Below, one piece after another: positions 1 to 24,421 of a stretch of DNA of 32,000 nt (its first letter is position 1; each line of letters opens with the position of its first letter). Under the pieces are notes generated by a model that searched no databases, was not told the DNA's origin, and saw only the letters and a list, made by a program, of their open reading frames with translations. The stretch lies in contig NZ_OW441264.1 of assembly GCF_936981045.1 (NCBI RefSeq), positions 60,001 to 92,000 of the forward strand, in the 5' to 3' direction. The position numbers and the translations under genes were made by a program. Origin of the DNA: Candidatus Saccharimonadota bacterium (lineage in GTDB: Bacteria > Bacteroidota > Bacteroidia > Cytophagales > Amoebophilaceae).

Positions 1-1551
1 TGCAACTATCTACAACTGTAATACTTGCTTCTGTAGCCAATTGGTTACCTGTATGGCCTAACATATCAGGATTCGCAAAATTACAAATGATTACATCATA
101 AGCCCGTTGTTCAATCGCTTTAACCACTTGATTGGTAATGTCTAACACGCCCATCTCGGGCACTACATCATAGGTAGCTACCTTTTTAGAAGGAATAAGT
201 AAACGAGTTTCACCAGGAAAAGGCTGTTCAATACCTCCATTAAAAAAGAAAGTAACATGAGCATATTTTTCTGTTTTTGCAATACGCAGCTGCGTCAAAT
301 CTGCTTGGGCCAGACAGGCCCCTAAACCATTTTGTATAGATAGAGGCGGAAAGGCTATACGACTAACGTGAGTTCGGGATTAGATTATTTTTTCATTTGA
401 TAATCAATATTAATAAAAATTTATAAAATTTGTTTTATAGACAGTTAAATAGGTAGTTGAATAACAAATAATTCTGATAATCAGTTTATTATATATATTA
501 TATTTATAAAATTAGATATAAAAACTTATTAAATAGGTGCAAATATTAACTAAATAATTGATATTAAATTGTTGTAAATCAGTCAAATAAATCCCGAACT
601 CACGTGACTAGGAATATCAGCTGCATATGTGGTTAATGAAACGAAATCACCTAAACGGGGAAAAACTGTACGTTTAAAATGTCTAAAATCAGGATCGGTT
701 AAAGCACGACTGAGTTGTCTTACACGATCTGAACGAAAATTCATAAAAAAAACAATATCCCCTGAATCAATCGTTACAGGTGACCTACCTGGTGCATAAA
801 AATCAGTAGGTTGTATAAATTCATCGGTTTCACCGCGTGCATAAGCTGCTTGCAATCTCCTTAAAAGGGTTGAAGCGTTATAGGCTGCTTGACCAGCTAC
901 TATACAATCATAAGTCGCTTGGGTACGTTCCCAACGATGGTCTCTATCCATGGCATAATAGCGACCAGTCAGTGAAGCCACTTGACCTAATCCTATTTGC
1001 TGGCATTGCATTTGCAGTAGCTGGATGGATGTGGCTGCACTAGTCGGTAGTGTATCCCGCCCATCCAGAATGGCATGAATATAACAGCTTTTGATAGCCA
1101 CTTGCCCACACAATGCTAATAAGGCATCTATATGTTTTTCATGGCTGTGCACACCACCAAGTGACAATAGCCCTATTATATGAACGGATGCTTCCGCATG
1201 ATTTGCCTTACTTAAAGCGGATAACAATACCTTGTTCGTAAAGAAATCACCCGTTTCAATTGCCTTATTCAAACGTGTTAAGTCCTGATCCAGGACGCGA
1301 CCTTCTCCAATCGTCAAATGCCCCACTTCTGAATTGCCCATTTGACCTTCTGGTAAACCTACCGAACAACCAGATGCATCCAATAAAGTATGTGGGCAGG
1401 TCTGCATTAAATGGTTCCAATATGGGGTTTTTGCACCTGCAATAGCATTATAACGCGTTTCTGAAGAATGGCCCCAACCATCAAGGATCAATAAAACAAC
1501 AGGATGAGGTGGTTTGAATGTGCGCATAGACGCAGAAAAAAACAAAGCCAT
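1..1551 (-). pseudogene. gpmI: 2,3-bisphosphoglycerate-independent phosphoglycerate mutase, split by a 240-bp MITE; the C-terminal end runs off the window start
   Basis: ORF 583..1551 encodes the iPGM N-terminal and middle parts (LILDGWGHS, GNSEVGH, GGVHSH) and terminates at a stop inside the MITE (tail HVSSGFI*). Minus-strand translation of 1..365 continues RIAFPPLSIQNGLG..IAKTEKYAHVTFFFNGG..VATYDVVPEM..NFANPDMLGHTG. Deleting 366..610 (MITE plus one TSD copy) rejoins the two parts in frame (..DIPS|RIAFPP..). Confidence 0.85.
366..605 (+). mobile_element. MITE copy A (240 bp), IS982-type terminal inverted repeats, TSD GACTA
   Basis: Ends are ACGTGAGTTCGGGATTAG... and ...AATCCCGAACTCACGT. GACTA occurs at 361..365 and again at 606..610. 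There is no ORF and the core is very AT-rich. Confidence 0.9.
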
Positions 1552-1751
1552 TTAGGATCATGCAGCTTTCTGACAAGATTACCTAAAAACAAGCCCGCCC
1601 TTGTAAAAAACAAAGAAGACGCATAGCTGAGAAAAAAAACATCTCCCCTTTGTAAAAAGTTGCGATTAGAAAATCTAGCCCTAAAGCTGATCGGAAAATG
1701 AGCTTAATTGGGGCTTCAGGGCGGATTCTGATTTTCCAACTTTAAGGGTAT

Positions 1752-2495
1752 CTATACTAAATTTTTAAGTTTACGAATCTCTTTATCCTTCAAAAAGATC
1801 CATTTGCCACGAGGGATATGCTGCTTAGTGAGATGGGCATAACCTACTCTATCTAATTTATGGACTACATAACCCAAATGTTTAAAAACCCTTCTAATAA
1901 TTCGGTTCTTACCGATATGGATCACCACGCCTATTTGTGTTGCATCTTCTTCTACTATAGCCGCCCGATCTACCTTTGCCAGACCATCTTCTAGTACAAG
2001 ACCTTGTTGTATAGCATTTAAATGCTCAATTTGTATAGCCTTGTTCAATACTACATGATACAGCTTCTGAACCTTATTGGAAGGATGCGACAAGTTACGA
2101 GCCAAATCCCCATCATTGGTCAGCAGCAATAGCCCTGTGGTATCATAATCCAGCCGGCCAACGGGATAAATACGCTCCGCACAATACCTTTTGCTAATAA
2201 GATCTAAAACAGCTTTGCGACCTTCCGGGTCTTGCACGGTAGTAACATATCCGCTTGGCTTGTTTAAAAGTATATACCTTAGCTTTTCTGGATGCAAAGT
2301 AGCCCCTTTATAGGTAACTATTGCATCGATTGGTATTTTTGTACCTACCCTTTGTACAACTGCACCATTAACGGCGATATAACCTGACTTAATCAGTTGA
2401 TCTGCTTCCCTTCTGGCACAAACACCCGCATTACTTATAAATTTGTTTAACCGTATAAGAGACGAAAGACAAGGCTTAATAGAATGATCCTCCAT
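1752..2495 (-). CDS. pseudouridine synthase, RsuA/RluB/RluF family (S4 domain plus catalytic RLDYDTTGLLLLTNDG motif)
   Basis: 247-aa ORF with an N-terminal S4-like RLNKFISNAGVCARREAD motif and the conserved catalytic-Asp motif. Confidence 0.85.
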   Translation of the reverse strand: MEDHSIKPCLSSLIRLNKFISNAGVCARREADQLIKSGYIAVNGAVVQRVGTKIPIDAIVTYKGATLHPEKLRYILLNKPSGYVTTVQDPEGRKAVLDLISKRYCAERIYPVGRLDYDTTGLLLLTNDGDLARNLSHPSNKVQKLYHVVLNKAIQIEHLNAIQQGLVLEDGLAKVDRAAIVEEDATQIGVVIHIGKNRIIRRVFKHLGYVVHKLDRVGYAHLTKQHIPRGKWIFLKDKEIRKLKNLV

Positions 2496-2528
2496 AAGAA
2501 CATGACTAATATAACTTAGCCATTACGC

Positions 2529-2894
2529 TTATTTTTTTGTATTTAACTTTGCATCCACTGCATACATCGTATGCGGTACTACTTTCAAACGTTCCCTATC
2601 TATAACCTTACCTGTTACCACGCAAATGCCATAGGTTCCATTTTTAATGCGTTGAATGGCAAGCTCAATTTGTTTGATAAACTTTTGTTGACGCTCAGCC
2701 AATTGGCCTACATTTTCTGTCTCTATTACTTCTGCATTTTCCTCAAATGGCTTACCAGCAGATTCAAGGCCTGCCTCTTGACGACTCAAAACCTTTTCCA
2801 ATACTTGGAGTTCATGGTTGGCTTTTTCTAATTTTTCTAAAAGAATCTTTTCAAAAAACTTTAGATCTTCAGATGAGTATGCTTCCTCTGCCAT
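2529..2894 (-). CDS. DksA/TraR-family protein (Bacteroidetes type with degenerate zinc finger)
   Basis: 121-aa ORF with a coiled-coil N-terminus and a C-terminal GTYGICVVTGKVIDRERLKVVPHT motif typical of TraR/DksA C4-like proteins. Confidence 0.7.
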   Translation of the reverse strand: MAEEAYSSEDLKFFEKILLEKLEKANHELQVLEKVLSRQEAGLESAGKPFEENAEVIETENVGQLAERQQKFIKQIELAIQRIKNGTYGICVVTGKVIDRERLKVVPHTMYAVDAKLNTKK

Positions 2895-2991
2895 AACTTT
2901 TTGATCTTAATGGTAAGTAACCTACCGTAACAGCTTTAAAAATGGCTATTACATTACACTACCTTAATAATTTAAAATATTCACTTATGCT

Positions 2992-22839: not shown

Positions 22840-22958
22840 GATGAGAAGGGAATGGGTAAACAATGAAGAATCAAGTTAGTCAGCTACTGTATTGCGAGCA
22901 ATCAGAAGCAATAGATATGCTTAATTTTAAGTGGTCCAACCATTTCTTTACTCTAGGA

Positions 22959-23065
22959 CCATTGCAGGGATAGAAAACATTCCTATGATTCAAAAAGGAC
23001 AAGTAATCGGAGCTAAAAATCATCTTTCTACTTTTGAGAATTTTGTTATGCTAATGGCCGAATAA
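22959..23065 (+). pseudogene. IS6-family transposase, 3' part
   Basis: IAGIENIPMIQKGQVIGAKNHLSTFENFVMLMAE* is a typical IS6 transposase C-terminus. It is colinear with the 5' part, which ends at 19500. Confidence 0.8.
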
Positions 23066-23233
23066 TAACCAATATATATCCAAAACTTCACTTAAAAGAA
23101 AAGACGTTACTAACGAAAATATAGACGCGACAGAACCATATTTTTACTTTACATTAAAATTAAAGTAAGTTTTTGGAAAAGGCTCATCTAAATCATTAAT
23201 ACAGTATTATTTATCTATAATTAGATCCTATAT

Positions 23234-24028
23234 CTATGCAGATATAGCTGCTTTAATAGCTGGATGATGCATATAATTGAGTAATGTAAAATCCTCATAT
23301 ACAAAATCAAATAGACCCCTTACGGTCTCACGGAGTTGCATCGTTGGCAATGCATAGGGCATACGTTTGAGTTGCAAGTTTGCTTGTTCTAGGTGATTAT
23401 GGTATAGGTGCGCATCGCCTAGGGTATGAATAAGCGTACCAGGTTTTAGCTGGCACACTTGAGCCACCATCATGGTTAACAGTGCGTAAGAGGCAATATT
23501 AAAAGGAACGCCTAAGAAGACATCCGCACTACGTTGGTAGAATTGACAAGATAGTTTTCCATTTGCTACATAAAATTGAAAAAAAGCATGACAAGGTGGC
23601 AATGCCATTTTAGGCATTTCACCCACATTCCATGCACTTACCAATAGTCTACGTGAGTCAGGATTCTCTTTGATTTCCTTTATTATAGCGCTTATTTGAT
23701 CAATTTTTTCGCCTGTTGCTGTAGTCCAACTTCTCCACTGGTAACCATAAATAGGGCCTAGGCTTCCCTCTTTGGTTGCCCATTCATCCCATATGGTAAC
23801 TCCATGTTGCTGTAAATAGAATACATTTGTATCCCCGCTTAAAAACCAGAGTAACTCATGGATAATAGAGCGCAAATGCACTTTTTTGGTTGTAAGCAAT
23901 GGAAATCCTTCATCTAAGTTAAAACGCATCTGGTAGCCAAACACACTCTTGGTGCCCGTACCAGTCCTATCTTTTTTGTCAATCCCCTCTGTTAAAATAT
24001 GTTGCAGCAATCTTAAATATTGTTTCAT
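23234..24028 (-). CDS. thyA: thymidylate synthase (ThyA type)
   Basis: 264 aa with DRTGTGT, ALPPCH (catalytic Cys) and DAHLYHNH motifs. Confidence 0.95.
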
Positions 24029-24181
24029 CGATATGATCTATTCTTTGCTAGTTTAGCCATGAAATTTATGCCAATTCCAAGTTTGGAGCAAGCTTTTTGC
24101 TTTTTTTGATAATCTTTCGAGTATAAAAATTGCTTATGCGCTTCATCTCTACATCTTTGCTTTGAAAATACGTTGCGATTA

Positions 24182-24421
24182 ACGTGAGTTCGGGATTAGA
24201 TTATTTTTTCATTTGATAATCAATATTAATAAAAATTTATAAAATTTGTTTTATAGACAGTTAAATAGGTAGTTGAATAAAAAATAATTCTGATAATCAG
24301 TTTATTATATATATTATATTTATAAAATTAGATATAAAAACTTATTAAATAGGTGTAAATATTAACTAAATAATTGATATTAAATTGTTGTAAATCAGTC
24401 AAACAAATCCCGAACTCATGT
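24182..24421 (+). mobile_element. MITE copy G (240 bp), TSD GATTA
   Basis: GATTA occurs at 24177..24181 and 24422..24426. One TIR is changed to CTCATGT. Confidence 0.9.

Follow-up and report, generated by a model that had tools for sequence, protein, structure and literature searches.

What are the seven closely similar repeats of about 240 bp that lie in a 32,000-nt stretch of a spider-symbiont Cardinium genome (contig NZ_OW441264.1, positions 60,001 to 92,000; hereafter the window), and what could have moved them? We are highly confident that they are copies of MITECca01, a mobile, non-autonomous MITE (miniature inverted-repeat transposable element) whose ends are of the type found in the insertion sequence (IS) ISCca4, and that the element is already known: it was described in 2022 from the genome OW441264 (Halter, Hendrickx, Horn and Manzano-Marin, Microbiol Spectr 10:e02627-22; PMC9769881). 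An earlier note, made from the letters of the DNA alone, had read the repeats as a recently active, non-autonomous MITE family with the terminal inverted repeats (TIRs) of the IS982 family and 5-bp target site duplications (TSDs), and this reading is supported here. It is a correct rediscovery and not a new finding: the publication covers, for the same genome, the element and its parent IS, the number of copies and the strain specificity. What a reading of the letters recovered is a real, curated mobile element with its boundaries in the right places.

Structure and identity of the repeats

A repeat search of the window returned the seven copies (A to G; Table 1) as two families, one the reverse complement of the other, with B, D and F lying opposite in orientation to A, C, E and G. 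Brought into one orientation, the copies show a mean column identity of 91%, with 20 nt of unrelated flank counted in, and all seven stand where the earlier note had placed them (240-242 bp each). The 16-nt TIR ACGTGAGTTCGGGATT, searched for with up to two mismatches, matches the window 19 times where shuffles lead one to expect 0.01, and these matches comprise 14 MITE ends and five IS ends. All copies had been said to end in this 16-mer, which is slightly too strong: of the 14 termini eight match it exactly and the remaining six with one or two mismatches. Perfect 5-bp TSDs flank six of the seven copies (A, B, C, D, F and G) and copy E has none; the six duplicated sequences, and their absence at E, had been given exactly as we find them.

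Pairwise, the copies differ at only 1 to 14 of 240 positions, from which we take the family to be young or recently active. Copies A and C differ at exactly one position, as had been judged by eye and as alignment bears out, and copy B is the most diverged, with 9 to 14 differences from the others. The core of about 208 bp has a G+C content of 14-16% and is 94-99.6% identical among the seven copies. No open reading frame (ORF) of 60 aa or more occurs inside any of them. The interior has no similarity to the published ISCca4, coding region included, the match being limited to the terminal 11-14 nt, and the description of the core as non-coding, AT-rich and unlike the interior of an IS982-family element therefore stands. 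A size typically below 300 bp, TIRs, TSDs, the want of coding capacity and TIRs held in common with a resident autonomous IS are together the features of a MITE.

In the published account MITECca01 is about 240 bp long, has inverted repeats (IRs) very like those of ISCca4 (IS982 family) and carries no transposase; 169 copies make up 3.5% of the chromosome, lying mainly in intergenic DNA or within other mobile elements and seldom in genes, and the element is unique to one Cardinium strain (PMC9769881). That paper, which the literature search advised in the earlier note brings up as the match, is cited in a review of MITEs in prokaryotes from 2024. Of ten ORF products of the window, eight are identical to proteins in the series CAH2559617-CAH2559630 from the Oedothorax gibbosus endosymbiont Cardinium (cOegibbosus-W744x776). 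The MITECca01 sequence of Fig. S1 in PMC9769881 starts ACGTGAATTCGGGATTAGATTATT and ends ...GTAAATCAGTCAAAATAAATCCCGAACTCACGT; in global alignment it is 92-94% identical to all seven copies over the full length, as machine-read text that holds 234 letters where the figure numbers 240 positions. The differences are mostly single-base dropouts and look like machine-reading errors. The genome, the length of 240 bp, the 16-nt IRs and the subterminal AGATTATT are the same in both, and no feature separates the published element from the copies in the window.

An exact 21-mer from the invariant part of the core (TAGACAGTTAAATAGGTAGTT) has no match in the GTDB representatives (185,579 genomes), the metagenome contigs of JGI or IMG/VR. 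It follows that the source genome is absent from these sets and that the family is unseen elsewhere at exact-match stringency, which agrees with the strain specificity reported in PMC9769881. The TIR core AGTTCGGGATT was not found in any of 80 gap loci, three Cardinium loci among them.

Seven copies in 32 kb had been called a very high density. This does not hold for the present genome, in which 169 copies in 1.137 Mb lead one to expect 4.8 per 32 kb (Poisson P of seven or more, 0.20); the window is about the genome norm. The main text of PMC9769881 makes no mention of TSDs, of target preference or of recombination between copies. What is documented here for the window beyond that text is the 5-bp TSD, a TA bias at the target, an empty site, the clean inactivation of gpmI and its restoration upon excision, the insertions directly before the start codons of atpB and gap, which leave both genes whole, and the probably recombinant copy E.

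Table 1. MITECca01 copies and IS982-related features, with positions counted from the first letter of the window (IRL and IRR, left and right inverted repeats of an IS)
Feature	Position	Strand	Length	Ends or flanks	Context
MITECca01 copy A	366..605	+	240 bp	TSD GACTA (361-365, 606-610)	within gpmI
MITECca01 copy B	8321..8562	-	242 bp	TSD GCTTA	adjoins atpB ATG (8567)
MITECca01 copy C	17017..17256	+	240 bp	TSD TGATT	between 397-aa hypothetical gene and gap
MITECca01 copy D	18506..18746	-	241 bp	TSD TAATA	42 nt upstream of start of 397-aa hypothetical gene
MITECca01 copy E	21026..21265	+	240 bp	no TSD (left flank TTGTA, right flank TTAGT)	
MITECca01 copy F	22143..22382	-	240 bp	TSD TCATA	within group II intron reverse-transcriptase ORF
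MITECca01 copy G	24182..24421	+	240 bp	TSD GATTA	spacer between thyA (start 24028, minus strand) and 23S rRNA gene (24879)
ISCca4 pseudogene	9627..11912	-		IRL ACCTGAGTTCGGGATTAG at 11912, IRR ACCTCAGTTCGGGATTAG at 9627	DDE_Tnp_1_3
Nested IS5-family IS	9986..11262	-		IRs GAGGCCGTTGTGATAG / GAGGTTGTTGCAATAG, imperfect; AAATT flanking both sides	
ISCca4 copy X, IRR-end remnant	20554..20626	-	73 bp		IS positions 1003-932
ISCca4 copy Y, left (IRL) part	20627..21025	+		IRL ACGTGAGTTCGGGATTAG, identical to MITE TIR	IS positions ~1-400
ISCca4 copy X, left (IRL) part	21266..21787	-		IRL ACGTGAGTTCGGGATTAG	IS positions ~1-525
Full-length IS982 transposases					CAH2559891, CAH2560036, CAH2559793, CAH2559826, CAH2559788, CAH2559926, CAH2560039

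Insertion sites and neighbouring genes

Copy A is a clean, recent insertion that splits gpmI, since deletion of 366-610 (the element and one TSD) joins the two halves of the gene into an open frame of 435 codons that reaches the edge of the window. Deletion of 22143-22387 (copy F and one TSD) lengthens the ORF of a group II intron reverse transcriptase (RT) through the FNFIGFYF motif. The site of copy C is an empty site in three related Cardinium genomes, which answers the suggestion in the earlier note that unoccupied sites be sought in relatives. The spacer before the gap ATG measures 257 nt in the window and 12 nt once copy C and one TSD are removed; the Cardinium of Nabis limbatus, that of Tipula unca and Cardinium sp. 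TP have some 15-20 nt at this place. Synteny with the relatives stops within about 2.5 kb of gap.

Two of the copies stand directly before a start codon. The in-frame ATG of atpB is found at 8567 with element B 4 nt upstream, and it takes its A from the final base of the right TSD, GCTTA. On the minus strand, the ATG of gap occupies 17010-17012 with element C likewise 4 nt upstream, and again the TSD supplies the A (AATCA, then TG). Essential-looking loci had been listed as hit by the insertions. This is true of gpmI, which is interrupted, whereas the ORFs of atpB and gap are complete, that of atpB carrying the Pfam domain ATP-synt_A. A third gene, thyA, faces element G at a distance of 154 nt, and atpB, gap and thyA each face the same (AGATTATT, IRL) end of their element (copies B, C and G). 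The geometry of B and C at the ATG could be due to chance, to target preference or to a filter for tolerated insertions.

MITECca01 may be more than a passive parasite, offering core metabolic genes outward expression signals or a tolerated 5′ leader and serving as a recombination substrate through which DNA is deleted. Taken as a whole, we regard this idea as unlikely. Its first part is prompted by copies B, C and G, of which the same IRL end precedes the start codons of atpB and gap, with the TSD giving the A, and faces thyA; its second part is prompted by the structure of copy E (see below). Neither idea is found in PMC9769881. A scan for promoters and terminators around copy C gave background levels of both, with four sigma-70-like promoter matches against 4.2 in shuffles. 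No exact TAnnTTTG motif, which we take to be the Bacteroidetes -7 consensus, was found on either strand by eye, a search that was not made systematically. Rfam holds no family that matches any of the MITE copies. Folded as a single strand, the element does better than shuffles (z = -4.0), the centroid pairing being almost all TIR stem. A structural or regulatory role for the MITE thus finds no support in the folding, the promoter scan or the Rfam search. Short elements that are bounded by TIRs, flanked by TSDs, present in high copy number and intergenic close to gene starts are typified by Correia/NEMIS in Neisseria and RUP in Streptococcus pneumoniae. These are thought to be mobilised in trans by the transposase of a resident IS, although their parent IS families and sequences are unlike those of MITECca01. 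Regulatory effects have been demonstrated for the Correia elements, and we know of none demonstrated for MITECca01.

The folding score and the common orientation of B, C and G towards the starts of atpB, gap and thyA are also what one might point to if the repeat were maintained by the host, as a REP-like structured regulatory or RNA element that spreads by recombination and not by transposition. We judge this to be very unlikely. The stable pairing hardly extends beyond the TIR stem, neither Rfam nor the promoter scan speaks for it, and copies lie also within other mobile elements and within gpmI. The TSDs, the restoration of ORFs upon excision and the empty site argue instead for transposition.

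ISCca4 and the probable source of transposase

The earlier note left the source of a mobilising transposase open and proposed looking for an intact member of the IS982 family. Elsewhere in the same chromosome the annotation lists seven such transposases (Table 1); they are full-length proteins of 293-296 aa, found in the 90%-identity clusters of two best matches. Among themselves these proteins share 89-98% identity, and with the protein that we rebuilt from the dead copies in the window 97%. The rebuilt transposase is likewise 97% identical, over its full length, to an intact 293-aa IS982 transposase from the Oedothorax gibbosus endosymbiont Cardinium, and NCBI names its homologues IS982 family / ISCca4. 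On its C-terminal fragment the IS982 partner matches PF13612 (DDE_Tnp_1_3) with E = 9e-34. The name ISCca4 is that of ISfinder, and the first description of the IS is from Cardinium cBtQ1 (PMC4007549). To the published ISCca4 of 1003 bp the fragments in the window have a nucleotide identity of about 95-96%. In the genome under study 68 copies of ISCca4 have been counted, seven of them intact (PMC9769881), a figure with which the seven annotated transposases agree.

How far the IS and the MITE resemble each other can be stated from their ends. ISCca4 and MITECca01 occur in the same genome, both start with AC and their ends are alike over the first 16-18 nt, ACGTGAGTTCGGGATTAG being the MITE end; a start with AC is the end signature of the IS982 family. 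They are otherwise different elements. ISCca4 is about 1003 bp long, codes for a DDE transposase of 293 aa and ends in imperfect IRs (IRR ACCTCAG..., IRL ACCTGAG or ACGTGAG), whereas MITECca01 is non-coding, with 240 bp, an unrelated interior and GTG-type ends on both sides. Positions 3 and 5 are both G at either end of the MITE (ACGTGAG) and at the IRLs at 20627 and 21787, and the IRR reads ACCTCAG. Both ends of the MITE are thus of the perfect IRL type, and the IRs of its parent ISCca4 are imperfect.

Since the MITE has ends identical to the ISCca4 IRL, and decayed pieces of ISCca4 abound in the window, one may ask whether the repeats are no mobile family at all, being independent remnants of ISCca4 cut down in situ to their ends by internal deletion; one eroded remnant of 250 bp is in fact reported elsewhere in the genome (PMC9769881). 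We hold this to be exceedingly unlikely. The seven copies have in common a core that is 94-99.6% identical and unlike the interior of ISCca4, on which independent deletions would not converge, and six of the seven carry TSDs of their own. That the copies are artefacts of assembly, a single repeat collapsed or misplaced in a genome that consists of 30% repeats and is hard to assemble, is almost certainly wrong, as the flanks of each are unique and each has a TSD and substitutions of its own, and the assembly was made from long and short reads and curated manually (PMC9769881).

The 250-bp remnant, termed "ISCca4 MITE-like", and a second element, MITECca02, have the IR core and the proposed parent IS in common with MITECca01 (PMC9769881). 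MITECca02 measures 174 bp and retains 105 bp of the left end of ISCca4. Neither of the two is found in the window, which contains no further TIR pairs. Compared by eye in the machine-read text of Fig. S1, the first ~69 nt of MITECca01 resemble, in reverse complement, the right ~68 nt of MITECca02. The latter may have arisen as a chimera of the left end of ISCca4 and an end of MITECca01, and not as an independent deletion derivative.

Returning to MITECca01 as a mobile element with ISCca4-type ends, units bounded by TIRs, duplicated 5-bp targets and precise insertions are found in one chromosome together with intact genes for the cognate transposase. In the mechanism that we propose, the DDE transposase of ISCca4 would bind, in trans, the common 16-18-nt ends of the MITE, and integration would use a 5-bp staggered cut, favouring A/T-rich targets that end in TA.

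Several points count against this reading. To our knowledge the chemistry of IS982-family transposition has not been characterised, and the element may move by cut-and-paste or by copy-out. The preference for A/T-rich targets with a TA bias comes from a small sample of only eight half-sites, which are 78% A+T against 63% for the window and of which six start or end with TA against a background of 18% (binomial P = 0.0007). No perfect 5-bp TSD flanks the ISCca4 copy at 9627-11912 (it lies between TTATA and TAATA), and within the window the TSD length of the MITE thus finds no counterpart in the IS. Derivation of MITECca01 from ISCca4 is a proposal of PMC9769881, and mobilisation in trans is inferred, both there and here, from the common ends and from the co-occurrence of the two elements in one genome.

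Copy E and other features of the window

Copy E lies in a stretch whose outer positions, 20627 and 21787, had been taken for the two termini of one IS. Both are in fact IRL ends, belonging to two inverted, partial copies of ISCca4 (X and Y in Table 1), and 20627-21787 is a rearranged composite and not a single IS. The remnant of the IRR end of X is 100% identical to 9625-9699. In the order of events that we surmise, Y would have inserted into X at IS position 931/932; two MITEs would then have come in, one in Y, behind position 400, with TTGTA as its target, the other in X, behind position 525, where the target is ACTAA (TTAGT on the plus strand). Recombination between these two MITEs, which would have had the same orientation, would have deleted about 1.25 kb and left a single chimeric MITE with mismatched half-sites. 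Both of the presumed target sites, after 400 and after 525, are uninterrupted in the other ISCca4 copies of the window. To judge from its junctions, copy E is probably a recombinant of two MITE copies, and its lack of a TSD is explained if it is a chimera of two elements with differing target half-sites. A deletion of some 1.25 kb at this site would be a concrete example of the role in "genome streamlining" that the authors of PMC9769881 suggest.

No perfect TSD surrounds the composite at 20554-21787; the missing TSDs of this composite and of the ISCca4 copy at 9627-11912 probably reflect IS-mediated rearrangement. The unit from 20627 to 21787 measures 1161 bp, with inverted arms of about 400 bp and perfect IRL-type TIR ends, and TTTTA precedes both ends when these are read inward. 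Such a composite could in principle serve as a substrate of the transposase, but it is without a TSD.

The composite and MITE F interrupt the remains of a group II intron (19522-22700), which consist of a D1-D4 region matched by Rfam (19522-19650) and two pieces of the RT ORF (19920-20582 and 21810-22148). Flanking the composite, the two RT fragments overlap as proteins (..EKLLKLI / MLKLIKQ..) but their DNA is not the same; two different intron copies, joined by IS-mediated rearrangement, are their probable origin. A 173-aa fragment of an IS6-family transposase (19012-19533; Pfam DDE_Tnp_IS240) ends where the D1-D4 match starts. It is probably ISCca2, which is the most abundant IS of this genome (PMC9769881).

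The ISCca4 pseudogene listed in Table 1 carries stops and frameshifts. Its IS positions 1-650 correspond to 11912-11263 and positions 646-1003 to 9985-9627, with the IS5-family element nested between the two parts. The transposase of the latter is intact (341 aa; 10119-11144) and is CAH2559620, with at least eight near-identical paralogues in the genome. Together the pseudogene and the element within it, 2.3 kb of nested IS, split the ATP synthase operon, atpB ending at 9616 and atpE starting at 11975; downstream of it (12 to 16 kb) atpE-F-H-A-G are intact.

Pfam matches in the window give a Bacteroidota gene set, including Porin_10, LpxK, an atpBEFHAG-type operon, gap, thyA and gpmI, and the window holds no tRNA genes. 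The 23S and 5S rRNA genes are located at 24879-27980, with MITE G 458 nt upstream of the 23S gene. The 24.8 kb upstream contain no 16S gene, and the rRNA genes are therefore unlinked. The 397-aa hypothetical gene upstream of gap (17270-18463), which lies between copies C and D, has no Pfam match. The gap locus of the Nabis limbatus Cardinium contains two tandem regions (7467-9379) that are homologous to this gene.

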